DNA from: Azolla caroliniana
Lineage: Eukaryota; Plantae; Polypodiophyta
Assembly: GCA_043228905.1 (NCBI GenBank)
Contig: JBHGNT010000013.1
Span: 10,912,001-10,976,000, forward strand
Reading direction: 5' to 3'
Length of the DNA stretch: 64,000 nt
Part shown: positions 3,014-64,000 of the stretch, piece after piece
How the letters are laid out: every line of letters starts with the position of its first letter
How positions within the stretch are numbered: position 1 is the stretch's first letter
The notes under the pieces: generated by a model
What the model was told of the DNA's origin: nothing
Seen by the model: only the letters and a program-made list of their open reading frames with translations
Database searches by the model: none
Translations under genes and position numbers: made by a program

Positions 3014-3096
3014 TGCGAGGGTTGAGAACCTCTGCTGCAGACATTTACTCTTGAGAAGAAAACCCTAACAGGTCGAAAACAGACACAATAGAAGAC

Positions 3097-12546: not shown

Positions 12547-13035
12547 TGTTAACCGTTCTGCTGGAAACACCTTCGATATGCCTACAAGCTATCGGTATCA
12601 AGGGAAGTGTAATCGTGAGGACTTGTGCACGGAGGTGTCGTTAGAGGAAGAACACGAAGAGCATACCCGGAATAGATCCTGGGTCGTATACGTAGTTGAG
12701 ACCTTAGAAACGATGACACACAAATGAAAACAACAAGAGCTAATAGATATGTATTACTGCAATAGTTAGCGATGATTACAAAAACACGGCCCACAGCCGG
12801 TAGCCTTACAAAGCTATTATAACTATGAAACGACCTCGTCTAGGCTCTGGATATCTCTCCCTTGCCGAGGTACGCAGACCTTGGTTTATATACTTCTTTT
12901 CCTTCATACAACGCCGAACGGTCGACTGACTGTGAGACTCAAAACTCGGAATTTTACCTAACTCTCCCTTACCTACTCGCCTTACTTCCGGCGTATTACA
13001 TTTAACTAATTTCTATTTTTGGCCTATGGACAACA
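12547..13035 (-). repeat. 3' LTR of Gypsy-B
   Basis: Direct repeat of 26705-27193. Minus-strand TATATATAAA near 12884-12893 is consistent with minus orientation. Confidence 0.95.
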
Positions 13036-13037
13036 CC

Positions 13038-13054
13038 TGGCACACCCGTGGGAC
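13038..13054 (+). promoter_or_regulatory. Inverted tRNA-Arg-like primer-binding site in place of the PPT (Gypsy-B)
   Basis: TGGCACACCCGTGGGAC, 2 nt from the LTR end; no purine tract on the element sense strand here. Confidence 0.75.
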
Positions 13055-13150
13055 AAGACTTTGTCTGTCGGACCCACGGTTCACCATGGATTTAACAAAA
13101 CCACACGAATTACAAAAATTGCCCGTTCCTACCGGGCTTAGAGGTTGGTT

Positions 13151-16631: not shown

Positions 16632-16662
<31 letters not shown>

Positions 16663-20621: not shown

Positions 20622-20665
<44 letters not shown>

Positions 20666-20798: not shown

Positions 20799-20800
20799 GT

Positions 20801-20812
20801 TTGAACCGATTT
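20801..20812 (+). promoter_or_regulatory. Self-priming PBS (Tf1-type)
   Basis: TTGAACCGATTT is the exact reverse complement of AAATCGGTTCAA at 20541-20552 (predicted transcript 5' end, 33 nt after TATA start). No TGG tRNA-type PBS is present. Confidence 0.85.
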
Positions 20813-20898
20813 TCGGTGCCTGTCTGGTTTTTTCTCTCCCTCTTCCTTCTGTCTCCCTCCTTTCCTATTAGTCTCTTATTCCCCTTTTCCTTCATCCC

Positions 20899-22068
20899 AT
20901 GGCCACCGTTAGCGCTGAAGAGTATCAATCCGTTTTCTCGGAATTCCAATGCTTGAAAGAGAAGTTTCATGCTTTGGAACAAGAAAATCAACGCTTGTTG
21001 GGGGATCTTCAGCAAATTTCCTTAGAAAAGCAACAAACGCAACAACAGCATGGGGAACTTGCGTTACGCGTGCAACAACTCGAAGCAACCATCGTAGCAA
21101 TGCAACAACAAGGGCACGGAGCACAAGGGATTCATAAAGAACCCAAGATTGGCCTTCCCACGAAGTTCGATGGAACGCGATCGCAGTTTAGAGGGTTTCT
21201 TAACCAGGTACGGTTAGTTATTCAAATGCATCTGTCCCGATATCCCACCGATGCATCACGAGTGGGTTTAGTAGGCACGTTGTTAAATGGCTCAGCATTA
21301 GCATGGTTCGCTCCGCTACTAGAAAAGGAATCTCCTGTACTAAATAATTTTGAAGAATTCATAAGTGAGTTTAAAGCATGTTTTGGAGATACTGACAGCA
21401 TAAGGACTGCAATCAATAAAATCCGGCGATTACGCCAAGGTGACCGTCCAGCCTCCGCATATGCTGCAGATTTCCGCCTACTCGCCGCCGATATCCCCTG
21501 GGATGATCAAGCATTGATGGAGCAGTTCCGCTATGGTCTACGCAACGATGTCAAGGATTTACTCTTGACTTTCCCTGAAGAGCCAAAATCATTAACAGAA
21601 GCAATCAGTCGAGCGGTCAGATGTGACAACCGCCTCTTCGAGCGACGTTCGGAACGACAATTTCAGATGCCGAGGGCAAGATCCGAGCCTACCTATGCCT
21701 CAGTGGTAGCGAAACCTTTTCAAAGGGAGTCACATAATGCGCCTCCAGTAAGTACTCCAACTCCAATGGAAATTGACACTACACGTCGTCGTGGGCCGCT
21801 ATCGGAGGAGGAAAAGCAACGACGCCGAACAAACCGATTATGCCTTTATTGCGGTGGACCAGGGCATATCGCGATAAACTGTCCCCATAGACCAAGAAGG
21901 CAGGTAAACCAAGTCGTTGTTAGTTCTGACTATACTAAACCCGAGTCTATTTCAGTAGGAATCTCTGATAGTCCTCATAGTCATAATAGTCCTAATAGTA
22001 CTAATAGTCCGAATCTCGCAAACAAATTTGATATCCTTAGCCAATTAGAAGAAGAGTTAAACGACTAA
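20899..22068 (+). CDS. gag: Gag of chromovirus (coiled coil, capsid domain, CCHC knuckle)
   Basis: 389-aa ORF: PTKFDGTR, LRQG, PTPMEID, CLYCGGPGHIAINC. Confidence 0.95.
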   Translation: MATVSAEEYQSVFSEFQCLKEKFHALEQENQRLLGDLQQISLEKQQTQQQHGELALRVQQLEATIVAMQQQGHGAQGIHKEPKIGLPTKFDGTRSQFRGFLNQVRLVIQMHLSRYPTDASRVGLVGTLLNGSALAWFAPLLEKESPVLNNFEEFISEFKACFGDTDSIRTAINKIRRLRQGDRPASAYAADFRLLAADIPWDDQALMEQFRYGLRNDVKDLLLTFPEEPKSLTEAISRAVRCDNRLFERRSERQFQMPRARSEPTYASVVAKPFQRESHNAPPVSTPTPMEIDTTRRRGPLSEEEKQRRRTNRLCLYCGGPGHIAINCPHRPRRQVNQVVVSSDYTKPESISVGISDSPHSHNSPNSTNSPNLANKFDILSQLEEELND

Positions 22069-22107
22069 GTCCAGCCAAAATAGGAGCCGTTTGGTTGGAC
22101 AGCCCTA
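22056..22107 (+). promoter_or_regulatory. -1 ribosomal frameshift signal
   Basis: Slippery G TTA AAC (22056-22062), 6-nt spacer, 11-bp stem GTCCAGCCAAA (22069-22079) / TTTGGTTGGAC (22090-22100). Pol is open in the -1 frame from the slip site. Confidence 0.8.
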
Positions 22108-25100: not shown

Positions 25101-25655
25101 CAACTCCAGCAAGCTCAACAATCACACAAGGACTACGCAGATCGTCATCGACTTCCATCCAGTTTTAACATTGGAGATCGGGTGTGGCTGCTACGACGAC
25201 ACATCAAGACTACTCGCCCATGTGAGAAGTTGGATTATCGGCGATTAGGTCCTTTCCGTATTATCGGGAAGATTAATGATGTCGCTTTTCGTCTCGAGCT
25301 ACCTCCGCAACTTCGGATACATCCGGTATTTCATAGTTCTCTCCTCGAACCCTATCACGAGAGCACTATCCCAGGACGTACTATACAACCACCACCTCCT
25401 ATCGAGCTCGAAGATGGACCTGATGAGTATGAGGTCGCTGCCATCCTCGATTCCAAGATTGTTCGCAACAAGCTCTACTATCTAGTCGATTGGCTAGGAT
25501 ATAGTCCCAGCGAGCGTACTTGGGAACCGATCGAGAATGTGACCAATGCTCGTGCTCTTCTAGAAGACTTCCATCGACGATATCCCGAGAAACCGGGTCC
25601 TCAATCCAAAACGACTCGTGGAACTCGTCGTTTTAAAGGGGGGATAGTGTCATAA
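22062..25655 (+). CDS. pol: Pol of chromovirus (PR-RT-RH-INT-chromodomain), expressed by -1 frameshift
   Basis: ALLDSGA, YLDD, EADASD, HPQTDGQAER, GPF, chromodomain EYEVAAILDSK...YLVDWLGY...TWEP; no internal stops. Confidence 0.95.
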   Translation, partial: RLSPAKIGAVWLDSPRSVQPISGSIPSKQVSDVFVAQVAVSTKSTPPVHTLALLDSGANSCFMDRNFARAHQISLRKLPCPASVVVIDGRPIASGNIIEESEPINIVLDNLTCVVSFNIISIPEHPIVLGLPWFELHNPDIDWRTREIRLRQTQGSTQKVATISLRQLREEGRKEEMFLFAISVQPSSTTKEESTVQLPEKYHQYADVFDKVQANTLPHHRPYDCAIDLQPGKEPPWGPIYNLSPTELEVLRAYIEENLENGFIRHSKSPAGAPIFFVKKKDGSLRLVVDYRGLNKVTVRNRYALPLISSLLERINGARFFTKIDLRGAYNLVRIRPGDEWKTAFRTRYGHFEYTVMPFGLTNAPAVFQHMANDIFRDLLDDFLIIYLDDLLVYSKTQEEHDSHVLLVLKRLREHGLYAKLEKCSFGCNQVEFLGYVISSEGISMDPAKVKTVIEWHTPRSVRDVQCFLGFANFYRKFIQNYSKIVLPLTQLTRKGQSFIWSKETDMAFESLKKAFTSAPILGHVDPEKPFIIEADASDFALGSILSQQGNDEKLHPVAFHSRKFDAAEINYEIHDKELLAIVDSFMQWRHFLEGSPHQVTVFSDHKNLAYFQDARVLNRRQARWAHFLTRFDFKITYRPGKHQGKADALSRRSYLTPRPGEPAFDNQKQVILGPARLQAAQVFDMPVDSDITNTIREDLKTDAFAQAILAQIDPSRASCSQSQSPGTDYRQFKYCDGLLFFKELLYVPNGSCRLRVVQNCHDTYTAGHFGSTKTLDLVQRSFWWPRMRQFVEDFVRTCDTCCRAKMPRHHPYGLLEPLPIPSKPWQSIALDFITDLPVSKGFSAILTVVDRYTKMAHFLPCTKEISSEDTAEIVMREVCRHHGLPDNIISDRGPQFVSKFWKHLFKMLKVTCNLSSGYHPQTDGQAERTNQTLEQYLRCFLNYHQNDWADILQFAEFAYNNAIHASTKVTPFYAYTGYHPRWCVLETPEVSTNPCAEDRLERLRKIQADLSTQLQQAQQSHKDYADRHRLPSSFNIGDRVWLLRRHIKTTRPCEKLDYRRLGPFRIIGKINDVAFRLELPPQLRIHPVFHSSLLEPYHESTIPGRTIQPPPPIELEDGPDEYEVAAILDSKIVRNKLYYLVDWLGYSPSERTWEPIENVTNARALLEDFHRRYPEKPGPQSKTTRGTRRFKGGIVS

Positions 25656-25937
25656 CTAGACTCGAACCCATAACCTTTTGTTACACGGGTCGAGACTTTA
25701 CCATTAGGTTATGAATTGTAATTTGAAGGATATTATTTTCATTTAGGTTTTATTAGGAAATTGATGTATATTCCAGATTCCTCTGGAACATTCTAGAAAC
25801 TTCAGGAGTATTCCTGAAGACACTATAAAAGGAGGCGCAAGGCATTAGTTCGAACCAAATCGGTTCAACGCCAGTCTTAAGCCTTCTAACCACTGTTGTA
25901 TATCTTCCTTCATATAATACATATATCTTTCGCATCA

Positions 25938-26003
<66 letters not shown>

Positions 26004-26136
26004 ACTCATTCCTTCTCTCAAAGTTCGACACCTCTCATAGTACTAATCCTTCTCTGTCTTAGTACTATTCCCCGACAATAGTACTAATCCTTCTTTTAGT
26101 ACTAATTCCTTCTCTGCCTTAATAGAGTTCCTGACA
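25648..26136 (+). repeat. 3' LTR of young chromovirus
   Basis: Direct repeat of 20332-20798, preceded by PPT. Confidence 0.97.
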
Positions 26137-26686
26137 TCGGGGAGAGTTGCGCCGATCATTACGGAAATTTCTCTGATCGTAACGGTCATCCCGATCCTCT
26201 TCATTCCGATCATAATCGTTGTTTGCCCGATACTAGTCATCGTGATAGCGATCACGGCGGTCGTCCGATCTCCGTCGATTGTCATTTCGGTAACGGTCGT
26301 CGTCTCGACGGTAATCGTCGTTACGGCGTCGTCTATCCGGCAATCGCGGTCGTTGGTTATCCTGGTTCCAGTAGGATTGGCGCTCGTCCTGACGAGAGTA
26401 TGTATCCCGAGGCTCGATCTGGCGAACTGGAGCCGTCGTTGTGCGGTTGAGCATATTGTATTCGCAATGTTCGACAGTGTGGGATCGGGACTGGCAAATC
26501 GGACACTGTGGTCGGTGAGGACATTCGAGGGCCAGAGGGCCCGATCCCGAGAAAACAGTGCATTGGAAGTGCCTTTGACTGGCTCAGGGCATCGGCCAGA
26601 TGGCCGAGACCGCTTGGTGTGATTGGGTGCCGTAATGGCGGCTGAAGGTTGTCTTCAACATAGTTCGCTGTGATCTCACAGCTGTA

Positions 26687-26699
26687 ACCAGGCGTGCCA
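26687..26699 (-). promoter_or_regulatory. tRNA-Arg-like PBS of Gypsy-B, probably truncated by a gag deletion
   Basis: Minus strand reads LTR-CA, TAATT, then TGGCACGCCTGGT; mid-gag sequence follows directly. Confidence 0.7.
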
Positions 26700-26704
26700 A
26701 ATTA

Positions 26705-27193
26705 TGTTAACCGTTCTGCCGGAAACACCTTCAATACGCCTACAAGCTATCGGTATCAAGGGAAGTGTAATCGTGAAGACTTGTGCACGGAGGTGTCATT
26801 AGAGGAAGAACACGGAGAGCATACCCGGAATAGAGCCCGGGTTGTATACGTAGTTGAGACCTTAGAAATGACGACACACAGATGAAAACAACAAGAGCTA
26901 ATAGATATGTATTACTGCAATAGTTAGCAATGATTACAAAAACACGGCCCACAGTCGGTAGCCTTACAAAGCTATTATAACTATGAAATGACCTCACCTA
27001 GGCTCTGGATATCTCTCCCTTGCCGAGGTACGCAGACCTTGGTATATATACTTCTTTTCCTTCATACAGCGTCGAGCGGTCAGCTGACTGTGACGCTCGA
27101 AACTCGACGTTTTACCTAACTCTCCCTTACCTACTCGCCTTACTTCCAGCGTATTACATTTAACTAATTTCTATTTTTGGCCTATGGACAACA
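26705..27193 (-). repeat. 5' LTR of Gypsy-B
   Basis: Direct repeat of 12547-13035; TSD ATGGG adjacent. Confidence 0.95.
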
Positions 27194-28193
27194 ATGGGCC
27201 ACTTCCCCCTTTTGTAGAAGTCCATGGACATCAAGTTGATCTCTGAGTCGTGGTCTATCAATGCCACCACCGGCTCCTGGACGTCGCTGATCCGAATAGG
27301 GGTCTCTGTCGTGGCCCTGGCACAGTGTAACTTCGAATAATGGCTCTCCGCCAACTCGTCCTCTAGGGCCGTGTCTTCCAGGCACGTCATCCGCACCTCT
27401 ATGGGCTTCTCCGGTTCTGGCTTCGTCGAGAGCCGTTTCCGCTTCACCAAGTCCACGATAGAATCGTGGAACTCCTTCTTTGCGATCCCAAGCACTTCCC
27501 GTAGTGACAACTCAACCTTGTTGTCGAGAATCCGCTCCTCTAGGACCTTCCGTAGGTCCGTGGTTCTGTCAATCTCAGTGATCAGTTGGTAGCCGCTTGG
27601 CTTGGGTTTGTCCAGCACGTTGGGATTGCCGGCATCATTCTTTGGGCCGAACCGGGTCTCGTATGGTTGTGAGGGTCCAGCCCCTCCGGCCTTTCCCACA
27701 CGTTTGTCTTCTACTAGAACCTCGTAGTTCTGGCACACGGCTTCCATGAAGCCGGTCTTTTCTTCGACCGGATCGCTCCACCTGGTGACCTCCCGGGCCC
27801 GTCTTTCCACATGGTCTGCTTCCTCCCTTCTCAACCGCACGTCGGTGAGGCCTTCTAGCACCACTAGCCAGAACCAAGAGTCTTTCGTCTTCCAGCCTTT
27901 GTCACTCCCGACCCGGATTCCTACCGACGCTGAGTAGTGGATGGTCTCCACGTGGCGCGACACCGCTTCTTCCATCAGCCTCTTCATTCTTCCCCGTATG
28001 ATATTCAGTTCCAGGGCTCTCCAAGTCTCGCTAACCTGCACCCTCCCGTTCCATAGGTACACCACATTAGCCCTTATTGCTTTTGTGAAGTCCACGTAGT
28101 CCTTCCGGACGTGACAGACCGCGTCACACCACAAGCACCGATGCCCACCCAGAGGCCTTCGATCGCGAGGCTGCTCGCAGTCGTCCCTCCTCA

Positions 28194-29089
28194 TGACGAG
28201 AACTGCACGCTCCCTATACGCAAGGCTCGTCCACAACCGAGCTTAGAATCATACACAGAAAAACGGGAAATAAATGTACGACATGAAGAATACATGGAAA
28301 ACCCAAACTAAGGGAAAAACCACGGCAGCCCACAAGCTGCAAACTATCACTATGTTCGAATATACAACAATGAGTTCACGAGAGGCAACGACCTCGTGCT
28401 CACAATCTTCGCCACAGGCGGCGGTTACAACTGAGGCAACGACCTCTTCCTCTCTCTCACTCTCTCTGTACACAGTTACGCGCTCTGATCTAACGCAGAC
28501 AAGAAAATAACTACAACTACTAAAAGTTTGCCCTAAGTCATATTTATACTAATATGACTTTTCGGCTATTTACAAATGTAGCCATGATGGACTCTCAGAA
28601 ACATATTTACGAATATGTCTCTTCCTCCGGTGAGCACTCCTCACCGGGTCTGCACCATCCGGCTCTCCGTAGCCGGGTACTCCTCATCCGGTTCTCACCG
28701 GGTCTGCATCATCCGGCTCTCCGTAGCCGGGTACTCCTCATCCGGTTCTCACCGGGTCTGCACCATCCGGCTCTTCGTAGCCAGGTACTCCTCATCCGGT
28801 TCTCACTGGGTCTACATCATCCGGCTCTCCGTAGCCAGGTACTCCTCATCCGGTTCTCACCGGGTCTACACCATCCGGCTCTCCGTAGCCGGGTACTCCT
28901 CATCCGGTTCTCACCGGGTCTACACCATCCGGCTCTCCATAGCTGGGTACTCCTCATCCGGTTCTCACCGGGTCTGCACCATCCGGCTCTCCGTAGCCAG
29001 GTACTCATCATACGGTTTCGGCCTCGGCCGAGTTTGTTCATCAGCACTGTTCTTCTCCCTTCCCATCCGGAGGGACCTGTCTCCCAACA
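28194..29089 (-). mobile_element. Solo LTR inserted in Gypsy-A gag (same family as 16347-17005)
   Basis: TGACGAG...CCCAACA; flanks CCTCA/CATCG fit a decayed CCTCG TSD; the host frame rejoins as IAQA|RRD. Confidence 0.88.
28641..29018. repeat. Seven tandem copies of a 54-bp unit inside solo LTR
   Basis: Unit TCACCGGGTCTGCACCATCCGGCTCTCCGTAGCCGGGTACTCCTCATCCGGTTC; seen as a 7x 18-aa periodicity in the ORF track. Confidence 0.95.
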
Positions 29090-30565: not shown

Positions 30566-33500
30566 GGGCGCATCAACAAGTGCATCCACCGATAGTCGAA
30601 TGTTGTACACAGAGGCGAATCGGCTCTCAATGGTAGCGGACGGCAAGAGCAGGACCGAAGGCACAAAGAACGTGCCGAAGGCAGTTCCGGACCCTCCACA
30701 AGTAGGGGGAGTCAAGGCGGCGCCAGAGGCCGGCAAGCAAAGGCCGACACAGAATGTTGGTACTATGGTAAAAAGGGTCATAGAGAAAGCGATTGTTGGA
30801 AGAAGCGCACTGATTCGGACAGATCCAGATCCGGCAAGGCCGGCAGAGAGAATTGGCAATACTCGCACTACGCAGAAGGATCGGGAGGATCCAAAACCGG
30901 AAAAGCCGGTACGGGGCCAACCTTGATGATGAAACGTGAGGCTAACTCGATGAAGAAGACCACTGTCAAATCGGAGGAAGTGTGGTACGTTGATTCCGGT
31001 GCGTCGAATCACATGACGAGCCACAAAGAGTGGTTCTCTTTCTTGGAGAAACCGGAACAACCGGGAGTCGTCAAAACCGGAAACGACCCTCCTCACCCAA
31101 TTGTGCATGTCGGAGAAGTCCCTTTGAGCCACGTCGAATAGAGGGCGAAGTTGATGAACGTATTACACGTTACGACTATCACGAAGAACCTGGTGTCAGT
31201 CGGTCAGATCGACCGAACGAAACCATAGCCTTAACAAGCTCAACCTTATTCATTCGGATGTATGGGGACCGGCACAGAACGCTAGTCTTGGCGGGAGTCG
31301 ATACTTCGTCTCCTTCATTGACGACTACAGTCGGCACACATGGATCTACCTCATTAAGCGGAAGAGAGAAGTCTTCGAGTGTTTCCGGAACCTACAAAGT
31401 CTGGTTGAACGGGAAATGGAGAGGAAGATCAAATGCCTGCGGTCGGATGGTGGAAAAGAATATTTTTCTAGCCAATTCAACAGTTATCTACAGCAAAAAG
31501 GAATTCAGAGAGAGTTCAGCTACAGATACACACCGGAGCAAACCAATGTGGCCAAGAGGAAGAATTGGTTGATTGTCGACGCGGCAAGGGCAATGCTGGA
31601 GGAGAAGAGCATGCCCCATTTCTACTGGGTTGAGGCGGTCCGGACGGCCGTCTATATCCAAAACCGGATCAGTGACAAGGTGTTCACGCATGAGTTGTAT
31701 TTCGGGCACAAGCCGAATTTGAGAGACCTTCGGATATTCCGTAGCATTGCATATGTGCATGTGTTGGATGAGAAGCGGACGAAGTTGGATGCAAAGTCGG
31801 AGAAATGCATCCTGGTTGATTACTTGCATGAGCAAAAGGGGTATAAGTGTTATAACCCCTGGACGAAGCAGGTTTGAGTTAGCCGGGATGTTGAGTTTGA
31901 TGAGACAGCATCATGGTATGCCTTACCGGCTCCGACATCCGACCCCGACCCGATACCAGAGGATGAGGCTAGTGAGCCTAAACCGGTCCAGTTAGAAGAC
32001 GAAGGGTTCGAGACTCTAGATGTGAGTCCGGAATCGCTTCGGTTGAGTGGACCGAATGAGCGGCTGAGTTAGGATGACCAGTCAGATGAGGAACCGGTGA
32101 GTAGTGGAGACTCTGTTGTGTTGTCCCCGCGCAAGGAACCGAGGAGGCGGTTCACGCGCAAAGAGAAAGGGAAGAAGAAGATGTTGCTGGAATACGAAAC
32201 CGGCAACGTTGAGTCGGATCGAAGCGATCCGACTCCGGAAAGGTTGAAGGCAGATCTTCGGGAACGAAGTCCGAACTGGCCAAGAAGGGCCTCAAACCGG
32301 GTAACGATAGGCTATGCCAGTCTTCCCGCCAGAAGAACCCCGTGAAGCGGTACGGATACAATGAGTACATGGCGCATCATTATGCGTACAGGATCAAAGT
32401 GGCGGAAGTGCGTGATCCGAAGAGCTACGCAGAAGCGACAAAGGACGCAAATTGGCGTGCCGCTATGGAGGAAGAAATGCGGGCACTTGATGCCAACGAC
32501 ACATGGGACCTAGTTGACCCTCCCCGACACTGTAAACTGATCGGATGTAAATGGGTGTACAAGGTAAAGTACAATGCTGACGGTTTGATTAACTGGTACA
32601 AGGCCCAGTTAGTGGCGAAGGGATACGCACAGACCCACGGAATCGACTACGATGAGACCTTTGCTTCGGTAGCAAAGATAACGACGGTTCGTGTGGTGCT
32701 AGCGGTTGTTGCGGCAAGGGGGTGGCATCTTCACCAGATGGACGTGAAGAATGCATTTCCTCAAGGCGATCTTAAAGAAGAAGTCTTTATGACCCAACCC
32801 CCCAGTTTCCAGTCAGAGATGAACAAGTCGGTTGTATGCCGGCTGAAGAAGTCACTTTATGGCCTGAAGCAAGCCCCCTGAGCTTGGAATGCGAAGATCA
32901 CGCACTGGTTGCGTAAGATGGGGTTTGCGGCCTCCAAGTCCGACTCTTCGTTGTTCATCCGGCAAGGTCCGGACGGTCCGGTTTGCATCTTGATGTATGT
33001 TGATGATCTAGTCATCACCGGACCCGGACTCGATGAAATCAGCCGAGTCAAGTCCCAGTTGTCAGACGCATTTGAGATGGAGGACTTGGGGGACCTTCAC
33101 AGCTCGCTAAGAACCCCGTATTCCATGCTCGCACAAAGCACATTGAAGTGCACTACCACTTCGTGCGTGAGCATGTCCTGAGCAGTGAAGTCGAACTTCG
33201 GTATGTTCATACGGATCGGCAAGTTGCCGACATCTTCACCAAACCGCTCGGATCGGAAAAGTTGCAGCACTTCACCGAAATGCTTGGTGTTCAGCATCTC
33301 GACATGCCAAACTTGAGGGGAAGAACGGGCAAAGACATCGGAATGGGCAAAGGCAAAGAAACTGCCGATTGCGTCGGTGAGGGACGAACCGACAAAGGGA
33401 GAGACAAGAAGGAAGGAGCCGAGTCGACAAAGGAAGTTGACACATCCGAACAAGTCGGAACAAGTGGCAGCGGCGGCAGAGTCAAGAAGGACAAAGCCGA

Positions 33501-34380
33501 CCGGAAGAAGAAGGCCAAGACCCGAACATGGTCCGATGTGGTGAAGGGCTTGGAACCGGAAGACGAATTTGGAGCGACCGATTCGGACAAGAGCTAGAAC
33601 GAATCGGACACAACCGATTCGGTTCAACAGACGGATTCAGAAGATACGGATCAATTCAAGGCCAAGAGGACGAGAAGGCGGCGAAAGTCGAACCGACATG
33701 AAGGAATCGTCGAATCGGCAAGCGCTAAAGTCACAACAACGAGGGAGATGAATTGGACCTGTTCAATAGACAACCCAACTGAGGAGGTCGAGGTGCACAA
33801 AATCAGAAGGGTCACAGCAAACATGACCGGACCAGACGAGGAGCGCGAGCGAGGTGGAGTGACGCCAGAAGGAGCCGGGTGGAAGGACCGGCTGCCATGG
33901 AGACTGACACTACGATCCGACCTCAAGTTGAGCTTGAGGGGGAGTGTTGAGCGGCAAGCTCAACCGGATCCGAATCGGCTTAATAAGCCTGAGCCAGATC
34001 ATCATCCGGAAGGATGAGCCAAATCGGTGAGCTGGTGAGCAAGTGAGCCGGTGAGCTGGGGAGCTAGTTAGCCGGATCAAGCAATAACCGGAAGCCTAGT
34101 AGCAGCCTAAACTACTAGGTAGTTAATGTCTCGTAGTTAGTGTTAGACACTCATGTGAGCATTGAAGTACATCGTACTTCTGTCAGTCCTCTTAGGACTT
34201 GTATAAATAGTGTTGTTGAGCATGTTGTATGAACAAAGAATTTTACAGAGTTGTTGATAATAGATTTAAGTTGTTCTGCTCTCTCTCTGTCTCTCCCGCG
34301 TATTGTGTATATTCAAGCTCTCCATTAAACTTGTGTTTTTGAGTTTGGTTTTCTATTGCTTCTGCACGCTATTCTTCTTA
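30566..34380 (+). mobile_element. Copia-2: older, internally deleted relative of Copia-1 (3' part plus 3' LTR 33945 to about 34380)
   Basis: Collinear with Copia-1 from about 3667 on. Deletions near 31210 (pre-integrase) and 33100 (RT/RH). PPT AGGGGGAG, then TGTTGAGCGGCAAGCTCAACCGG at 33945. LTR end approximate. Confidence 0.92.
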
Positions 34381-40864: not shown

Positions 40865-43215
40865 ATGACCACCACCATGATTCTCTCTCCACCATTTCCA
40901 GCCCCAACCTACAACCCCATCGCCTCCTCAACCATCTCCCGGATGAAGGACCTCAAAACCCCTCCACCATTGCTCATTATGGCTTCTAATCCTCCCAGAA
41001 GCAAAGGTCACATTCAGTCCACTCTTTCACTCTCTTCATCGTTCACTTTCATTTCTACTACAGTGTAAATTTTTTCGTTTTTCTTCATTAAAACCATAAC
41101 CCTAACCTTTAAAATTTTAACCCTAACCCTGATCTCTGAAATTGAACACCCTAACCCTAATTTCTATTCACAGATGATGCACCTCCATGGGAGGACTACT
41201 TCCAAACCTTATTCAAGAGATGGGCAGAAAAAATCAACACTAACGCTGGTGTAAGTGATCCCTCTCAAACTAATGCTCCTACTTCCGGTTCAAAACCTAC
41301 TAAACCTCCCCTTAATCTGGAAAATCCTACCATTGATATCACTACCACTCCTTCTTCAATCACCGAAACTCAAATTCAAAATGAAACTGAAACCCGAAAA
41401 GAGGAGAATGATGCGTCTCTGTTGGAAGACACCTCAATAATTGTATCAGAGATGGCCAAAGAAGACCAAAGTAGATCTGAATCTCGGCAACGCCTTGATA
41501 TAGAAAAGAAAGTTTCCTCTTTGAGCATCAACGATGCATTGTATTCTTTAGAGCATGATTCAGACACACCGTTAGTACAAGATTTCATCAATGTTTTGCG
41601 AAATTGTCGAAGAAAGAAGATCCTCCGATATACTGAAAGGGTTTTTTTGCAAATGTGTAGAAGTGGGTTAGATTGCCATGTAGCTCTCGGAAATAATATC
41701 GTGGCAGCATTCATCGAATGTGATAATATGCATTTTGCCCTTCAAGTATTCAACAAATTGGATACCCGAACGGAGTATTCTTGGACTTATGTAATAAGAG
41801 GTCATATCGAGCGAGACAATGCATCTCTCGCCTTCTCTCTATTATGGAAAATGGAAGAAGACCGTGTGCTCCCTAGCAAGTTCACATTTGTTGCTGTATT
41901 GAAAGCATGTGCCATCTTGAAATGTGTGGTGAAATCTCATGAAGTGCATCTTTGGATCGTTAAATTGGGCCTCGAATCCGATTATTTCATTGGAAACACT
42001 TTAGTAGATTTGTATGCTAAATGTGGATCAATTATTGAAGCACAGAAAGTATTTGTGAAGCTTCCAGCTAGAGATACCGTGTCGTGGACCGCATTAATAT
42101 GTGGTTACGTTGGGAATGGCCTTCATAAAGAAGCATTGAGATGTTATAAGAAAATGAAAGGGGATGGGATCCTCCCCGATGCATTTACATGTGTTTGTGG
42201 CTTGAAAGCATGTGGTAGCATTGGAGCCAAAGGGATGGGTAAGGAAATACATTGCCAGATAACCATAGAAGGATTTGAGGAAGAAGACCCTTTTATTGGA
42301 AATGCACTAGTTGATATGTATGTCAAATGTGGTTTGCTTGATGAAGCTCAAAATGTGTTTGATGATCTTTCCATTCAAGATGTGGTTTCTTGGACTGCTC
42401 TCATCGCCGGATATGCGGAGCAAGGTGAAAATGAGAAGGCGATGATATGCCACCGACAGATGCAAGAGCAGTGCTTGCTACCGAATGACGTAACCTTTGC
42501 AAGCACTTTGAAAGCATGTGGGAATAAGGCAGATCAAGAAAATGGAACAAGGCTACATGCACAAGTGTTAGCCATGGACCATCTTGGGAGTTTAGATGTA
42601 ATCACAGCAACTGCCCTTATCGACATGTACGCAAAGTGTGGGAACATGGTATGTGCACAAGAAGTGTTCGATGGGATGCAACAGAGAGACATTGTCGGTT
42701 GGAATGCATTGTTCACGGGCTATACTCGTCAAGGAGAGAGCAAGCTGGTGTTAGAGATTTTCGATAAGATGATCGATGAAGGAATAAAACCCGACGACGT
42801 CACTTTCCTTAGTATCCTTTCCGCATGCAGCCATGCAGGATCGGTCGAGAAGGGAAGACTATATTTCGATGCTTTAGGCAAAGAGTATGGGATTGAGCCA
42901 ACTATCAAGCACTACAATTGTATGGTGGATCTCTTCGGAAGAGCGGGACAGATTAAAGAGGCTTTTTCGATGTTGCGTAGTATGCCCTTTTCACCAGATC
43001 TCGTCGTGTGGACCACTTTGTTGGCCTCTTGTCGGAAGTGGGGAAATGTAGAGATCGGTCGTCAAGCTTTCGAAGCTGCCCTGAGACTCGATGATAAACA
43101 TATGGCAGCTTATAATGCAATGTTTAACCTCTATGTCGATGCGAATATGTGGGAAGAAGCAAAGCAGATCGAGTCGAGGAAACTAAACATACAAGTAGGT
43201 AAAGAGCTTGGTTGA
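40865..43215 (+). CDS. PLS-class pentatricopeptide repeat protein with E domain, no DYW; predicted join(40865..41006,41174..43215), 727 aa
   Basis: Repeated GNxLVDMYxKCG / DVVSWTALIxGY / PDxxTF motifs; HYNCMVDLFGRAG; E domain WTTLLASCRKWGNVE. A GT..AG phase-1 intron 41007-41173 joins an upstream Ser/Thr/Pro-rich exon in frame (intron inferred). Confidence 0.88.
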
Positions 43216-46503: not shown

Positions 46504-48953
46504 TTATGGTGGAGGAGAATTCCTCTTCTTCCTGCTCCTCCTTATACCTGTAGGCAGCAGCACCTTGCAGGAAGCAGTAGCACCAGAAGATGATGAAGAT
46601 GAAGAAGATGATGATGAAGAAGAAGAAGAAGAAGATGATGATGAAGAAGATGATGATGAAGACGATGAAGAAGCATGCGAAGATTCAGAAGTAGAAGAGT
46701 TATTAGAAGAGGAGCTGTTGAAAGAAGAAAAAGAAGAGGACGAAGAAGAGGAGGACCTTGATGACCTATTATTATTATTCATGGAGCTACTAGATTTGGC
46801 CGTCTGATCAGGTTTAGGTTTAGTAGCCTTAGCAGTTGCTAAAGGATACGAGCTCTTCTTGCTTATACCTTTGATAGTGGAGGAGCTAGTAGAGAAGAGA
46901 TTAGCGAGAATCCCTGCTGCAAATCCCCCGCCATAGCTAACCGAAGATCCACCATTAACACTCTGCTGAGGATGAGTAGAATTAGGGTTATGGGTGTTAT
47001 AGTGATAATCTTTGTTGAAGCTACTACCATTGCTGTTCTGCATCCCCATGCTTTTGGAGCTGCTAGATGATCTGATGGACACCATGTTGGGCACATTGAG
47101 CACCGGGGCCACTCTCATCATGTTACTGTAGGAAGATGACCTCTCCAGGCTGTTATAGTTAGTATTAGGTTTTGCTCTCCAGCCATAGCTACCACCGTCT
47201 GATCTGATCTGTCTTGACGATGCTTTGAGTGTATCATACTTCTTCCTCTGTAAGGTCTTAGGGCTAAGACTACCTGATCTTCCAACGCTAGCGTTAGGGT
47301 TAGGGTTAGGGTTTAAAGACTTATAACCCTCTAAGCTTCGAGCCCTCATTAGCTTGCCATTGTGCGAGTACCTGACTCCATAGTTGCTTTTGTGCTGATG
47401 ATGGTGAACGTTTGGGGGCGTCAAGCGGTTTTCTTTGGAGTGGTTTAATCGATGGTGATGGTGGTAGTGGTTTTCATGATCCTGATACATGAGTAAATAG
47501 TGTGGATCCACACTCAGGGATGCCCTTCCTGGGGCCACAGAACAGTCAGTGGGAGGAGGAAGGGTTAGGGTTAGGGCACTGCTATTAGCCGCCCAACAGC
47601 ATCCATCCATACAATACATACTACTAGCTTGATCATTAGTATGATCATTAGTATGATCATTAGTGCCGGTGTGGCTGTCATTAACAACAGACTGGCTCTT
47701 GGCGCCCACATAAGTATTACTCATCAGTATTGCCCCTGCAGAGTGTCTCCCTGGGCTCCAATATCCTGAAGTACTGCTACTATTGCTATTATTGCTCATC
47801 CACATCGTTTGATCACGATCCGTAGGTGGGATGTCTGTTACAGTAGTTGTTGTAGCAGCAGAACCACCATGGCATTGTTTCTGGTATCGATCAAAGTAGC
47901 TGAATGATTGAGGATGGATCCTCTGTTGTTGTTGTTTTTGTTGTTGATCATCATTCACTATGAGGGGATCTTTATGGCTTGTGCTTGATGATTTCCTGGC
48001 CGATTGATACTCATTATTAGTGCTCATATCGTTACAGTTAGTAACAGCATTTGGTGATGCCTTGTTGTTAGGGTTTAGTAGTGATTTGAGCTTGAATGTT
48101 CCAAACAGTAACAGAGTTAGATCCTTGATCTTGGAGCAACACTTCACATTATTATTATTACGATGATGATTGCTTCTGATCTTACTTGACCTCACATTGT
48201 CACCATCACTTGAACCAGCAAAATTATCTTCATGGCTAGTTTCATCAGTATCCTTCCTCCTCAGAGCTTCTGAGAGAGTACATGGAAGAGGAGAAGCATC
48301 CGACGGGCGTTTCCCATTCTGCTGCATTGCCATTAATGTACTACTACTGCTCCTGCTACTTGCATTAACCATGCTTACTGATGGCTTATCAATTGAATCT
48401 ACATTTTCGTTTGGGTCATCATTATTACCATTGGCTAAATGGCGATGATTAGTAAAGGGGATTGCTGTGGCTGGCTGAAATGCAGTATTGTTGCTGTATT
48501 GATCAGGGGCTAGATACAAGGGCTCACTATGAATCATGTCATTACTATCACTACAGTTATTCTGACTGCTGTTATCATTGAAATTGTTATTATTGTTATT
48601 GTTGTGATGAATCTGAGAATTAGTGGAAAGGTGCAGATTTGTGTACTGAGGGACATAGAGAGGGAGTAGCTTGCCTTTGAAGAAGAGATCGTCTGCGGAG
48701 GCAATCTGTTGCTGCAGATAACCATGACCGCTCATACAATTGTAGTGGTAACTACTACTGTGGTTGCTGTTGCAGGACTGATAGTTACTGCTTGCATCTT
48801 CACGAAGATGACAACTACCATTAGCAGAAGTAGTAGTAGTAGTAGTAGTAGCCTCATCACATGGAGTAATAGTTGAATAATTCTGATGATGATGATGATG
48901 ATAGGCAATGCATGAAGAGAATTCAAAATCACTGGAATTATTATTTGGAGGAT

Positions 48954-48984
<31 letters not shown>

Positions 48985-48999
48985 AAGAGGAGACTGCAT
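46504..48999 (-). CDS. MAKR/BKI1-like (DUF1645-like) intrinsically disordered protein, single exon, 831 aa
   Basis: 2.5-kb open frame in AT-rich DNA; motifs SDFEFS, SADDLFFKGKLLPL and VAPVLNVP recalled from the membrane-associated kinase regulator/DUF1645 group; many homopolymer runs. Confidence 0.72.
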
Positions 49000-49099
49000 T
49001 CTTCTTTGTCACTAGTAGAGAAAAATGAACTGAGCTTAAGCTGATTTTGATGATGATTATTAACTCATACAGCAATTACTAGAAGATGGGGTATCTAAA

Positions 49100-57012: not shown

Positions 57013-57324
57013 CCTTCTCCCTCTCACCAACACCATGACTCAATCACACTCACTCTCTCATTCCGTCTCACCTTGGTAGTGCTCCAGTGATTAACACAAG
57101 AACTAGGGTTAAGTACACTTGTTTAATATAATAAACCTAGACTAACACTCCACATTTAAAGTTTTTTACAAAAAAAATTCCATTTATAAAATAGGGAACA
57201 ATAGATTACAAAATAATCAAAAAAGTAATTACGAGAAGTGTTTACAAAGGCGGTAATTAAGGTAGACAAGTTAGATAATGATAAGGATCCAAGTTTTGTG
57301 GTCTTCAATGAACTTTCCTATGAT

Positions 57325-57713
57325 TGTTGTATGCCTGGCCGGACTAGCCTCAACACAGGTGTCTATCCGACACTTCTCCAAAGGGGTGGTAAGGATTGGA
57401 TGCTAGGTTACACGTGTAAGATGATTACACTAAGCACAGACGGTAAAACAATACAAAGACAACGATAAACACGCAATAAGTATAATTGTATTACTTCCGT
57501 AAAGCATTTACAAATCATCGGATCCTTTTATAGGCATCCGGCAAGGTTACAATCGGTGCGCTTAGGCAACCGACATCTGAATCGGTCTGGATCCGGATTG
57601 GTACCACTGTACCAGATCCGTCCCTCCGAATAATAAATATACTATTATTTACTTCCTATTATCCGATCCGACTCCGCCTTCCCACTTGTCCTTGCTCTTC
57701 TGACCGGCCAACA
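57325..57713 (-). repeat. 3' LTR of Gypsy-C
   Basis: TGTTG...CAACA termini; partner LTR not in window, so boundaries are inferred from termini and analogy to Gypsy-B. Confidence 0.75.
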
Positions 57714-57715
57714 CA

Positions 57716-57731
57716 TGGCACGCCCGTGGGA
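57716..57731 (+). promoter_or_regulatory. Inverted tRNA-Arg-like primer-binding site in place of the PPT (Gypsy-C)
   Basis: TGGCACGCCCGTGGGA, 2 nt from the LTR end, same placement as in Gypsy-B. Confidence 0.75.
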
Positions 57732-57763
57732 AAGTGCCTTGCACTTCGAACCCACTCCCAGCC

Positions 57764-60703
57764 TCAGTCTTCCTCCAAAATATCGAGCAAACTCCGCTCG
57801 AAGGTGTCAAGTGGTGCCTCTTCCTCCAATTCCTGTTCCTTGCCTGCTTGGTCTCCGACCTTCGGTTGGGTTGGCTGTTCCATAAAAATTTGCTGCTCCG
57901 GCTCTGCTTGATTCTGTGGTGCCGGTGCTTCCTCACCGCTCCGTCCGGGTTCTTCCTGTTCTTCCTCCGTTCCAGGCTCTGTTCTGTTACCAGTGTCGCT
58001 TTCTCTGGTCTCGACTGGTCGGTTCGGTGCGCCTTCTTCCTCTGCTCCGGTGTTTTCTGGTCTCAGCTCTTCTTCTTCCCCGGCATCGGTCTGCACCTGC
58101 TCTTCTTGATTTTCTTGGACCGGAAGTTCTTCTTTGGGTATTCCTTGTCGGGGTTGTTTGGTGTCGGTTGGTTCAGCTTCAGCTAGTCGCTCTCCCTCAC
58201 TTATAGTGATTGGCGTCGTTCTTCCCTCGGCTTCCTGTCGTAACCGGTCCTGCTCGTATTTCTCCAACTCCAAATGAGTTGCGAGCTGCCAACCCTCTAC
58301 CAACCCTCGGATTTCTTTGAGATGTTCTTCCGCTAAAGCGTAGAAATCCTCTGACAATTCTTCCCGAATGGCGACGATACTTTCTTCATCCATCTTGTAG
58401 AACTTGTCACCGGTCTTCCTCCGATTCTCGGCATCAGCTTGGAGTGTCTGCAGCTCGACTGCCTGTTGTGACCACTCCTTCCATAGCTTTTCCGTACTTT
58501 CGTTGATGCTTGCCTGAGCTCGGGTACTCCAACATGACATGATGAGCTTGATTCGGTCAACCCCCGCTTTAGCATGCGCATAAGCTTCTTGCTTTTCCTT
58601 CCTTGCCCGTTTTATAATGTCAGCCATTATCTGAGCCTGGGCTTCGTAATCCGCTCTCTGCTTTTCATAGGCACTTTGCAGTTTGTTGAGCATGAAGGTC
58701 GATCTTTCCTTTTCTTCATTCCGGATCTTGGTCAGATCCAGCTTTTCTCGCCTTAGCGCCTCTAATTCCTTCCTTCTCTCCGTCGCTTGGGTTATTTCCG
58801 CTGACAATGTTTCCTTTTTGGTACTGACCTCGTCCATTGTCTTAGCTAGGTCCAATCGGGTCTCTTTGAGCTGTTCTTTCAGCTTCTCTATTTGCCGGTT
58901 GTAGTCTGTTACCCATTTCTTGTTGTTCAACTCGGCCTGCTTGTGATCTCGGTAGAGTCGGTCGAAGTCCTCCGTCTTCTGCTTCAGGCGTCGGCTCACC
59001 TGAGCTCTTAACCGGTCGTCCCGGTCCTTCTGTTGTCGGAGTTCTTCCTGCAGTCGCTCTATCTCCTGCTCAGCCTGTCGACGCAGTCGGTCCTTCTCCT
59101 TTTGCAGCTTTTCTTTTTCTTCTTGCAGTCGGTCATTAGTGGCTCGGCCTTTCCGGAGGCCTTCTTCCATTCTTCATCTGTCGTCCTCCACCTCTTTCCG
59201 CTGCTCCCTTTCTTTGTCCCTTAATGCCTCCTGAGCTTTTAACTCCTCTCGCAAGGTTTCTATTATTTTTTCGGTCTCAGGGCCGGTTTGCAATGCTACC
59301 GGTTCCGGTTCCGGTTCTGGTTGCTTCCTTGTTGTCCCGACCGGCTCTGTGACAACTTGTGCTTGTTGAATTCTTTCCCTCGCCTGCAACAGCTCCCCTT
59401 GCAACTCCTGGATCTGTGTTCGGAGCGCGACCAACTCCTGGGTTGTTGTATGCGTTAGGTGTTGCCTACGCGTTTCTTCTTCCTCTAACTGGTCCGCTAC
59501 TCCCGACACCTGCTCCGAAAGCCATCTCAGCCATTGTGGCTTTGTGCTTCCTGTGTCGGAGTAGCATTGCTCACTTCTACTTCTTAACTCAGGCTATTTT
59601 TCCGGTCTTTTCTCTGGCTCCGGTGCTTGTTCCTTCCTCTTCTCCGGAATGACCGGTTCTCTGAAGTCCGGCAAAACCGGTTCCGATACTGCTTCCCTCG
59701 GCGTGGGTTCCGGTACTGCTTCCGCCCCGGCTACTGGAGGTGGTCCTTGCACCCTCTGCTGAGTTCTGTCAACTGGTGGAGCCGGTCCTCTCGCCCGTCT
59801 CTCCCGACCTTGTCTTGCTGGGAGTCTTACCAGTGGTTCGGATGAGTCTTCTTCCGTCTCAGCTTCCTCCTCCGGTGCGGCTACCAAACAGACCTTTTGT
59901 ATAAAGTCCTCTGGTTCCGGTTCCGGCCGTCGCACCGTTATATTGATTGGTTTGAGCGCTACCGGTTCTTCCTCAGCCGGTTCCTTGTTGGTCTTCCTCA
60001 CCGGTTTTCCTTTGCCTTTTCCTGCCGGTTTTGCCTTTGTTGCTGGTTCCTGTTGCTGTCGGGATGGTCCTTCCTCCTGCTGTTCTGCTTCTTCCTGGGT
60101 CCATCCGGGGGTGTGTTTCTCCTGGATTTGTCGGCGCTTTGTGACCTTTTTCGGCGTCGTCTCCTGCCGACCTCTTTTCTTTTGTTTGATGGGGAGCACC
60201 GGTGGGACTAACACCGTTAGCCATTGTGCTATCCCGGCCCATGGCTTTTTTCCTTCCACAAGGTTCTTGATGGCCTCCTTCAATCCTTCGGTTATGAAAT
60301 GGAGCCAGTCCACTTGTAATCCTTCGTACGTTGCAATTACGAACGCTGCCCGGTACCTGGCTATGGCCGGGGGACGAGAATTCACGAATCCGTACTCCAT
60401 CATGGCGCGGGCCACTTCTCCGAACAACAGGTTCTCTCCGCCCTGTGTTCGGTACGCCTTGCTATTGATGGAATACTCACCGAAATATTCGAATAGGATT
60501 TGACTTGAAGGGTTTTCGATCGTTTGAAGTCCTCCTGCTTTTATCCCCGTGAGCGCCTACACTGCTCCTTCCGTGACTTCTGATAAATCAATCGATGCTG
60601 CCGCCTGCTCTGGTTATGCGTGTGGTGGAGCGTTGGCGATCCGCAACAATCCTTCTAACCCGTTCTCTATCATCCATTGGCGTGCCTCTTCCGACAGTGC
60701 CAT
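57764..60703 (-). pseudogene. Extra ORF of Gypsy-C, about 979 codons in one frame with four premature stops (conserved N-domain, Pro/Glu linker, long coiled coil, acidic tail)
   Basis: ORFs 60614-61060, 59594-60427, 59174-59509 and 57764-59170 are all in the same frame; start at MALSEEARQW inferred by homology to Gypsy-B. Confidence 0.82.
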
Positions 60704-61163: not shown

Positions 61164-64000
61164 TTACTTTGTTTTTTTTTTTTTTCGGACCACGTCATTT
61201 TCCGGTCCCGCCCGATTTGTTCGGGTCGGTTCGCGCTGATACCGGAATCTCCTTCTGTCGGTTTTCCGGGATAGTCTTTGTCGGTATCGGTGTCGGTTCT
61301 TCCTCGGTCCGGATTTCTGCAGCAGCGTCTGTCGGTGTCGGTTCCTCATCGTGCCGGATTTCCGGGTCTTGCTTGAACGGGTTGGCTGGCATATGTCCCT
61401 TATACGGCTTTAACCGAAACCCATTTGCCCACTTACCGATGACTTCTCCGGACTACGTGCCGAGCTGATACGGCCCATTGTACTCCTTGGTGATCCAGAA
61501 CGGTCCGGTCCACCGAAACCGCAACTTTCCCGGCATGTTCCCCATCTGTGTCTGGAACAGTAGCACCGGTTTTCCGACTTCGAACTCCTTTTCGTTGCCA
61601 CGCCGGTGTTGGTCCACGAAAGCTTTTCTCCTCCTTTGCTCCAGTTCGAGTTGTAGTAAGCTGGCTATTCGGTTTTCTTCTAATTCCAACAACGTCGCCA
61701 GCCGGATTTGTTCGGACTCCTTCTCACTTAAGCGCTCCTTTACCTGGATCCGTAAGTTGGGGATCTGGAACTCTACCGGCATGACCGCTTCTAAGCCGAA
61801 TGCTAGTCGGAACGGGGTTGTCCGGATGCTGGTTTTGTACGTTGTTCGGTACGCCCATAGCGCGCTCTGCAATTTCGTATCCCAGTCGGTCCGGTTCTCG
61901 TTGACGATTTTTCGTAGGATGTTCTGCAGAGTTTTGTTTGTCGATTCCGCTAGTCCATTGGCTTGAGGGTAGTAGGGAGTACTCCTTTTATGTACCACCG
62001 CGTAAAATGACGTCAGGCTTTCTACTACCTGGCCGAGAAAGTGTCCTCCTTGGTCACTTATAAGCTGGATCGGGCATCCATACCGGCACCATATGCACTC
62101 GTACAGGAACTTTGCCGTGGAAGCGGCCGTGTTGTCCCGTAAGGCCTTCGCTTCCACCCATTTGGTGCAATAGTCGGTCGCCACTATGACATACCAATTT
62201 CCGGTTTGCATTGCCGGTGGCTTGAAGGGACCGACAAAGTCCAAACCCCACTTTTGAAATGGTTCCAATGGCAAGACCGGGTGGTGTGGCATCCGAGCCT
62301 GCTCCGTGGGTTGGCCCAGTCGTTGACACAAATCGCATTCTCTGCTATACTTCACGGCATCTTTTAGGGTGGTGGGCCACCACAGTCCGTTCTGCCATAT
62401 TTTCCGAGCGGTTGCATCGCCGGCATAATGCCCGCCGGCAATTCCACAGTGGGCTTCCCTGAGGATTAGATCCTTCTCATCGCTCCGCACTGCTCGTCTC
62501 CAGATGCCATCTGCCCCCTTGTGATAGAGGGTGTCTCCAACCAAGCAGAAATGTCTGCTTCTTACTGCTACCCTTTTCCTTTCATCGCGGTCCATGTTCT
62601 CCGGGGGTACTCCGGTGCTCAGGAACTGATGCATCTCGGTTAGCCACTTGTCTTCATCGGCTACCATTGCATCCGTTTCCAGTTCCGTCGTGATCCGGAA
62701 CAACTCAGCGTCGGGGAACTCATCCTGTACGCCGTTCCCTGCTTCTCCGGATTCGAGTCTACTTAGGTGGTCCGCTACCGCATGCTGCGCCCCGGGTCGG
62801 TGGAAAATGTCGAATTCAAATTCCTATAACAACAATGTCCATCGTGCAATTTTTCCCGTCAGGGATGCCTTCGAGACCAGGTAGAGTAGTGCCGAATGGT
62901 CGACATGGAAGGAAAACTTCCTTCCGAGCAGATAGTGCCTGTACTTTGTGACACTATACACCATTCCTAATGCCTCTCGTTCTGTCGTAGAGTAGTTCCG
63001 TTCGGCTTTTGAGAGTTTCCGGCTTGCGTAGTACACCGGCCGGTACCATTTCGGCTCCGTGAGTTGCATCAGAACGCTGCCGATTGCTACGTCCGACGCG
63101 TCGACGAAGACGTGAAAGCTTTTACTCCAATCCGGCGGTTGCACCACCGGAGCTTGCGACAGCATAACCTTCAGCGCTTGGTAGGCTTTCTCCTCCGTCT
63201 CCGCCCATAGGAAGGGTACCCTGTGTACGACGGCATGCAATGGTGTAGCGAAGTCTGCGAGGTGCCGTATCATCCGGCTATGCCACCTTATTTGGCCCAG
63301 GAACCGGCTTAAAGCCTTTGCGTTATTTGGTGCCGCTGCCTCGAGAATCGCCTTTACTTTATCCGGATCTACCGCGATTCCTTCCTTACTGACCACGTGC
63401 CCTAGCAAGTTGCCGTTTGCCACTCCAAAGACGCACTTGGCCGGGTTCAGACTCAACCGGTACTCGCGACACTTCTCTAAGCACAGCCGGAGGTGATCGA
63501 GTTGCTCTCCGTGCCGGCTGTAGACCGCGAAATCGTCAAGGAAGACCTGCATAAAACCGGGGATATATTCCCCGAAAATTTCCATTATTATCCTTTGAAA
63601 GGTCGTTGGGGCCGTCTTTAGTCCGAACATCATCACGACCGCGACGAACACTCCCCATTCTGTAACGAACGCTATCTTCTCCTGGTCGGCCGGATTCATT
63701 CGTATTTGGTTGTAACCGCTAAATCCATCCAGGAAGCTGTAAACTTCGTGGCCGGCTACCGCATCTAACACCCCGTCCGTAAATGGTAGTGGAAACGCAT
63801 CGGTCACCGTTGCGGCATTTAGTTTCCGGTAGTCCACACATACCCGGATTTTGCCGTTCTTTTTCGGGACCACCACTATCGGACTCAGCCAGGTTGCCTG
63901 CTTGACCGGTCGGATAAATCCGACCCGGAGGAGCTTATCAATCTCCTCCACCTTCGCCGCATAATTCGGATTCATCCGGTACTTGCGTTGAGCGATCGGT
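61164..64000 (-). pseudogene. pol (RT-RH-INT) of Gypsy-C with in-frame stops
   Basis: CVDYRKLN, FLDGFSGYNQI, QVFLDD, FVDASD, WGLDFVGPF, WTGPF; stops at 62824-62826 and 61453-61455; no additional RNase H and no chromodomain. Confidence 0.93.

Follow-up and report, generated by a model that had tools for sequence, protein, structure and literature searches.

An antisense site of tRNA-Arg type at the PPT position in a clade of Ty3/gypsy elements with members in Azolla caroliniana

Yeast Ty3, the canonical Ty3/gypsy element, has TG...CA LTRs, a 5-bp TSD, the order gag-PR-RT-RH-INT and a tRNA-primed minus strand (PMC5371799). Where the linear DNA ends on its U3 side is determined by the 3' end of the plus-strand primer, which in Ty3 is supplied by a PPT (PMC5371799). 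We analysed two elements, Gypsy-B and Gypsy-C, in a 64-kb stretch of A. caroliniana DNA (the window, meaning the whole stretch that was analysed). Their clade shares the above features of Ty3, except that a site of tRNA-Arg type lies in antisense orientation in the place of the PPT. A bipartite PBS that engages the T-arm is known in Ty1 and Ty3, but in Ty3 the second half of the PBS belongs to the sense RNA and is used by the minus-strand primer (PMC5371799).

Several plant lineages resemble these elements in part. Like the Athila side of OTA, the B/C clade has no chromodomain, showed no extra archaeal RNase H, and has 5-bp TSDs and extra 3' ORFs (PMC6317226). An AT-rich spacer of 5-6 nt precedes its sense PBS, comparable to the 3-6 bp of Athila, but the PBS is of tRNA-Arg type instead of tRNA-Asp, tRNA-Asn or tRNA-Ala, and the PPT, whose junction is conserved in Brassicaceae Athila, is replaced (PMC6317226; bioRxiv 10.64898/2026.03.20.713144). 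A tRNA-Arg PBS, 5-bp TSDs and extra ORFs are shared with the Tat subclades Ogre, Retand and TatIII and with moss Tat-like elements that have no aRNH, whereas the extra aRH domain that defines Tat was not found in the B/C clade with Pfam (PMC4408406). Phygy is described with a 4-bp TSD, a tRNA-Trp PBS and no extra ORFs, in contrast to the 5-bp TSD of Gypsy-B and the extra ORFs present here (PMC6317226). Helenus TRIMs also hold tRNA-derived sequence inside an LTR element, but there it acts as a Pol III promoter within the LTR of elements that have a PBS as well as a PPT, and a priming role for it is ruled out by the author (PMC10886601). In the B/C clade, unlike Helenus, the sequence is a tRNA 3' arm, is found outside the LTR and stands in the PPT's stead. 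In searches of the open-access literature, we found no element in which an inverted tRNA site replaces the PPT, nor either of the priming mechanisms discussed below.

By domain order, the B/C elements are classified here as Ty3/gypsy without the PPT feature, and as non-chromoviruses in which no extra RNase H was detected. Paired LTRs and a TSD are present in Gypsy-B, a PBS inside the 5' LTR is present in Gypsy-B and in B-like, C-like and short units, and a PPT inside the 3' LTR is absent.

Anatomy of the sites in Gypsy-C and Gypsy-B

Gypsy-C enters the window from its right edge and has the following features:

57320..57324, no strand: candidate 5-bp TSD ATGAT, with its partner outside the window
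57325..57713, minus strand: 3' LTR, 389 bp, TG...CA, U3 end toward the site
57714..57715, plus strand: 2-nt spacer CA between the LTR and the tRNA site
57716..57725, plus strand: block 1, complementary to the terminal 10 nt of tRNA-Arg (positions 76-67, with the CCA end)
57726..57732, plus strand: block 2, complementary to tRNA positions 65-59 and forming the 5' arm of the outer stem
57733..57745, plus strand: inserted 13-nt hairpin (bulged A, 4-bp stem, 3-nt loop)
57746..57755, plus strand: block 3, complementary to tRNA positions 58-49 (T-loop and 5' T-stem) and forming the 3' arm of the outer stem
57764..59173, minus strand: extra 3' ORF 1, sense, coiled-coil-like, no Pfam match
59594..60556, minus strand: extra 3' ORF 2 fragment, sense, no Pfam match
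61453..62823, minus strand: integrase with H2C2 zinc finger and rve
62824..63999, minus strand: RT and RNase H, continuing past the window edge

The TG of the LTR at 57325 comes right after ATGAT and its other end reads ...CAACA at 57713; repeat depth at this left edge climbs only from the bin 57312-57338. On the plus strand, 57716-57731 reads TGGCACGCCCGTGGGA. The inverted tRNA site that had been predicted 2 nt from the 3' LTR was thus confirmed in sequence, position and antisense orientation. The 16-nt match on which the prediction was based is real, but its extent was drawn too short, as the structured unit measures 40 nt and runs to 57755. The whole site (57716-57755) is a complement of the 3'-terminal 28 nt of tRNA-Arg that lacks one base and contains an added hairpin of 13 nt: tRNA position 66 is unmatched, which leaves a 1-nt gap ahead of block 2, and block 3 (57746-57755) reads TCGAACCCAC. 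Block 1 is single-stranded in the predicted fold. When R was allowed at position 7 together with up to two mismatches, the 16-mer was found exactly twice in the 64-kb window, at 13038 and 57716; the chance expectation is 0.02, and two occurrences were reached in none of 100 shuffles. An Rfam search of 57300-57900 gave no match, and ARAGORN detected no tRNA gene in the window.

The only TATA-like box that a motif search found in the Gypsy-C LTR is on the minus strand (57526-57533), and none was found in the Gypsy-B LTR. Because pol, the extra ORFs and the TATA-like box are all on the minus strand, the site is antisense and sits at the PPT position of the 3' LTR. No PPT precedes this LTR, in agreement with the original prediction, as 8 of the last 20 nt on the coding strand are purines. 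The same measure gives 10 of 20 upstream of the Gypsy-B 3' LTR, and the in-window controls, a chromovirus and a copia element, end in clear purine tracts. The depth of DNA contigs aligned to Gypsy-C is maximal over the site, and in three of four runs 39-70 contigs depart from the reference right after 57755; a PBS-side junction of the Gypsy-C LTR was not seen among the matches listed for these contigs.

The domain order RT-RH-INT was read in Gypsy-C itself, and gag, a zinc knuckle, a protease-like domain and RT in contig L074, whose RT is 92% identical to that of Gypsy-C. Among solved structures, the best match of the Gypsy-C RT/RNase H is the Ty3 RT (E 6e-65). Named relatives of the RT have about 50% identity in Riccia, Adiantum and Calypogeia and 44% in PITA entries, so that a seed-free land plant would be the likely host; the extra ORF has 10 relatives, all from one source, and no relatives of the Gypsy-C integrase or RT were found in viral contigs. 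Pfam gave no Chromo match in the integrase or the subsequent ORFs of Gypsy-C, and did give one in a Tcn1-like element of the same window (22041-25655). An extra archaeal-type RNase H had no Pfam match between PR and RT (L074, P0006 and P0025), between RH and INT or after INT.

Gypsy-B, which is complete in the window, served as an internal control:

12542-12546 and 27194-27198: TSD ATGGG
12547..13035, minus strand: 3' LTR, 94% identical to its own 5' LTR
13038..13077, plus strand: 40-nt antisense tRNA site, separated from the LTR by 2 nt and differing in its hairpin stem
26690..26699, minus strand: sense PBS, 9 of 10 bases as in block 1, with a 5-nt AT-rich spacer
26705..27193, minus strand: 5' LTR

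Its 16-mer differs from that of Gypsy-C at one base (TGGCACACCC...). No plus-strand PPT was found on the plus strand before the Gypsy-B 5' LTR. The possibility raised with the prediction, that the far end has a plus-strand PPT and no minus-strand PBS, therefore fails for Gypsy-B, and close relatives of Gypsy-C have a sense PBS. A wholly antisense-coding element was rejected on the grounds that Gypsy-B has no plus-strand PPT and that the TATA-like box is on the coding strand.

The LTRs of the two elements are dissimilar, as had been noted, with no blastn match beyond 10 nt. Their RTs are 75% identical and their integrases about 70%, the extra ORF 2 fragment of Gypsy-C is 34-54% identical to a Gypsy-B stretch, and both RTs fall in one subclade of a quick tree (SH-aLRT only, with a partial RT for Gypsy-B and without classified references from Athila or Tat). 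The description of Gypsy-C as an independent second element was accordingly not upheld: judged from their sequences, Gypsy-B and Gypsy-C are diverged families of one RT clade, and the site appears to have a single origin and to have been kept by selection. The final extra ORFs of Gypsy-C (57764-59173) and Gypsy-B (13151-14218) are otherwise unalike and have similar acidic ends, LLDILEED and ILDILEEE, that fall near the site; this ORF family has no Pfam match.

Related sites, hairpin covariation and tRNA identity

A pattern scan of metagenome contigs gave at least 125 matches in at least 121 loci. The related contigs apparently represent one set of assemblies, which widens the sample of families and leaves the host range as it was. 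Six metagenome loci and four viral contig matches were discarded as chance, as the distal block is absent from them (5-8 mismatches). After exclusions, 121 sites among the matches listed were analysed, including the two in the window; the search pattern had fixed the first 16 nt, the spacer length and the LTR-terminal CA. Block 3, outside this pattern, was present within three mismatches in 115 of 119 sufficiently long sites among the matches listed, compared with 27 of 2339 control offsets, and within two mismatches in 96 of the 119, with drift in some families. The remaining figures likewise refer to the matches listed. The LTR ends in CAACA or TAACA ahead of the spacer in 109/121 sites (CA being required), 88 of the 94 canonical sites have CA or CC as their spacer (its length being fixed by the pattern), and in 112/121 no PPT-type run within 42 nt exceeds 4 nt. 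Wherever matches to Gypsy-C or Gypsy-B proteins lie downstream of a site, they are on the opposite strand (50/50), with integrase identities of 45-95% in L010, L025 and L079. Ownership of the LTR at 57325-57713 by a different plus-strand element, the other objection raised with the prediction, was rejected on this count of 50 loci with coding opposite the site. The 94 sites with 80 nt of LTR fall into 29 to 51 clusters, depending on the threshold. The proposal that conservation of sequence, spacing and gap reflects function and not a one-off rearrangement is borne out over these many diverged families.

The inserted hairpin varies in sequence and keeps its pairing, while the tRNA-matching blocks keep their sequence. 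In a 57-row alignment (Gypsy-C and 56 distinct versions from 94 of 131 canonical-spacing sites among the matches listed), two-sided changes were seen in five of the six inner-helix pairs, in 67 cells. This number of cells was reached in 0/500 shuffles and this number of pairs in 25/500, and slid controls gave at most 7 cells; the sequences are related, and the 67 cells reflect a handful of events. The stem types GTGC, GGAC, GGGC and GTAC all occur, and therefore two pairs switched separately. The outer stem has zero two-sided changes, its 5' arm being fixed by the search pattern. Among non-Watson-Crick cells of the inner hairpin the sense-RNA wobble type prevails, 13 vs 5, and most of these cells resemble methylation-type decay in both directions. 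The coding strand of the Gypsy-C site is predicted to form a T-arm-like stem with an additional hairpin and a tail ending in CCA, at -21.7 kcal/mol (z -1.8), and single-sequence folds are individually non-significant (z -0.9 to -1.8). Co-folding with two tRNA-Arg genes, bacterial and viral-contig stand-ins for the host gene, predicted a three-helix complex from which the hairpin is extruded. On RNA energies, the predicted binding of the full Gypsy-C site to these stand-ins is -26.6 and -29.8 kcal/mol, 9-11 kcal/mol stronger than that of its first 16 nt alone (-15.2 and -20.7).

Once the hairpin is left out, the T-arm and the acceptor 3' strand of a tRNA can be read on the coding strand. A pattern search with this hairpin-less sequence matched one viral and 14 prokaryote contigs, and all 15 matches are tRNA-Arg genes. 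The gap that Gypsy-B and Gypsy-C had been predicted to have in common agrees with these non-host genes, as each of the 15 carries one extra base at that point. The plant partner of the site is presumably tRNA-Arg(UCU). Opposite tRNA U55, the 94 sites among the matches listed have A (61) or G (33) and nothing else, which fits tRNA docking because both can pair with U.

The sense PBS differs between families. B-like contigs (L010, L033, L047 and L056) have a 10-mer equal to block 1 after a 5-nt spacer, and short units without protein matches (L015, L026, L032, L034, L051, L065 and others) have the block-1 10-mer after 2 nt. C-like families have another sense PBS, TGGCGACCAC, with a 4-6 nt spacer at six loci, among them L046, whose LTR is 73% identical to that of Gypsy-C, and L074, where it is found ahead of an open gag-pol. 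Some contigs of this type display both junctions round one LTR and are possibly collapsed assemblies, and L015, L026, L046 and L065 have two unit copies each. A strict pattern for a tRNA that matches the C-like PBS found nothing; with a looser pattern for its 7-mer, 29 of 45 tRNAs called at 120 viral loci were tRNA-Arg. The C-like families keep the 3' site despite their different sense PBS, and therefore the site is neither a copy nor a by-product of an element's own PBS. A general function in which the 3' site pairs with the element's PBS was rejected, since such pairing fails where the PBS differs. The free CCA tail of the site, at 10 nt, has the length of the clade's sense PBS.

Some further features of these units were observed. 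The sense PBSs of coding families have a 10-nt match followed by a hairpin and, about 30-37 nt in, a GAAC block, like the 3' site (window 26655-26699, minus strand; L074:892-936; L071:7658-7702; L046:2226-2270, minus strand), and their folds are singly non-significant; this parallel may mean contact with the T-loop at both ends. In L015, L026, L065 and L046, tandem short units of about 2.2-2.5 kb share LTRs and keep both tRNA sites. They are likely non-autonomous parasites of the clade. In L053 (688-1889), a 1.2-kb inverted repeat, 75% alike, places two U3-R LTR halves head to head with a hairpin-type tRNA site on each side, as a fold-back or symmetrical unit.

Possible routes to plus-strand priming

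For a site with the anatomy, orientation, PPT loss, conservation and hairpin covariation observed here, the explanation to which we lean is that a second host tRNA-Arg anneals to the 40 nt on the minus-strand cDNA and primes the plus strand. After minus-strand synthesis, RNase H would clear the RNA and expose the site on the cDNA; an antisense transcript could equally present it. The 10-nt CCA complement would be free, and a host tRNA would dock there. Its T-arm would then exchange partners with the outer stem, forming helices of 10, 6-7 and 10 bp from which the 13-nt hairpin protrudes as a loop. From the tRNA 3'-OH, RT would synthesise DNA across the 2-nt spacer and on into U3, and integrase would trim the spacer as at any LTR end. 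More speculatively, gap and hairpin could divide the RNA:DNA hybrid into stretches too short for RNase H to attack, so that the primer survives until its extension. A CCA end that faces U3 across 2 nt makes CCA the most probable terminus of the primer, and because the outer blocks are constrained in sequence and the inner hairpin in shape, a fixed partner in trans would be expected. The clade and its non-autonomous parasites would on balance then have given up the PPT and prime both strands with host tRNAs, in some families two different ones, by way of a dedicated, structured docking site on the cDNA, as the first natural exception to priming from a PPT among LTR retroelements. Against priming in trans, the conserved gap and the hairpin weaken annealing relative to a perfect complement, the tRNA:DNA hybrid is itself a substrate of RNase H, and the non-Watson-Crick cells of the inner hairpin lean to the sense-RNA side by the 13 vs 5 given above.

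These objections count in favour of a primer in cis, which we regard as possible with less confidence. Here the element's own RNA would carry a replica of the tRNA 3' arm with its terminal CCA, and RNA and DNA hairpins would snap back during minus-strand synthesis, with RNase H sparing the folded RNA; a cut after CCA would leave a structured primer on a 10-bp hybrid in the PPT's stead. The T-arm-like fold of the coding strand with its extra hairpin and CCA tail (-21.7 kcal/mol, z -1.8) suits such a primer, as does the free tail of 10 nt, equal to the clade's sense PBS. It also accounts for the missing base and the added hairpin, as the gap would stack the T-arm-like hairpin directly on the 10-bp hybrid, and makes a second tRNA unnecessary. 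A structural primer should drift, however, yet the outer blocks stay tRNA-identical even where the sense PBS has changed. The variants that do occur point to the tRNA: an A-to-G in block 3 opposite U50 (4/94 among the matches listed) and a C-to-T at 57751, common in one run, are each a wobble with the tRNA and a mismatch in the sense-RNA stem, and the change opposite U55 (33/94 sites among the matches listed) alters the T-loop consensus. The 2-nt spacer, proposed earlier to be the dinucleotide trimmed by integrase, is compatible with that role but fits the trans tRNA and the cis primer alike.

It is unlikely that the site is a real docking site for tRNA that takes effect on an antisense transcript or has a structural role, with the plus strand primed from a second RNA template; variants of this idea include symmetrical replication from either RNA strand, genome dimerisation and end-pairing. 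RNA:RNA pairing would escape RNase H and tolerate G-U, and RNA reads of related families cover LTR and site in both orientations, but these amount to 68-226 reads per run, mostly less than 90% alike, from libraries of undefined strandedness. The coding strand holds the one TATA-like box that was found, and end-pairing conflicts with the C-like families, where the PBS differs from the 3' site. Least credible, and largely refuted, is an inverted PBS that arose as a functionless copying accident, the true plus-strand primer lying elsewhere. The same 10-mer is indeed found at both ends of B-type elements, and purine-rich stretches of 9-15 nt lie 54-353 nt away in the upstream extra ORF. These runs are coding, however, and unable to set the U3 end, and the site is kept in 29-51 LTR-end clusters (94 sites among the matches listed) with compensatory hairpin changes, in non-coding units too, and unlike the own PBS in C-like families.

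Under either of the two leading mechanisms, a high-copy clade with a tRNA-shaped signal for a PPT indicates that the priming step can be rewired, and the clade offers a direct test of how RT chooses and protects plus-strand primers. The antisense site may also expose the cDNA to tRNA fragments. With a PBS at both ends and no PPT the elements look strand-ambiguous, and structure-based LTR finders may misorient or misscore them.

The window contains further elements and genes. At 8900-30500 insertions are nested, with Gypsy-B inside another Gypsy (RT 9401-10234, DUF4100-like ORF 27160-28242). Gypsy-B in turn holds a chromovirus at 20331-26136, whose gag and pol look intact, and at 16367-16931 another repeat of 0.6 kb. 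A Ty1/copia element at 2566-8509 has its two LTRs and a normal PPT, and a decayed relative is at about 30600-34200. A PPR gene is located at 41161-43215 on the plus strand, and an open frame of 834 aa with no Pfam match at 46504-49008 on the minus strand.
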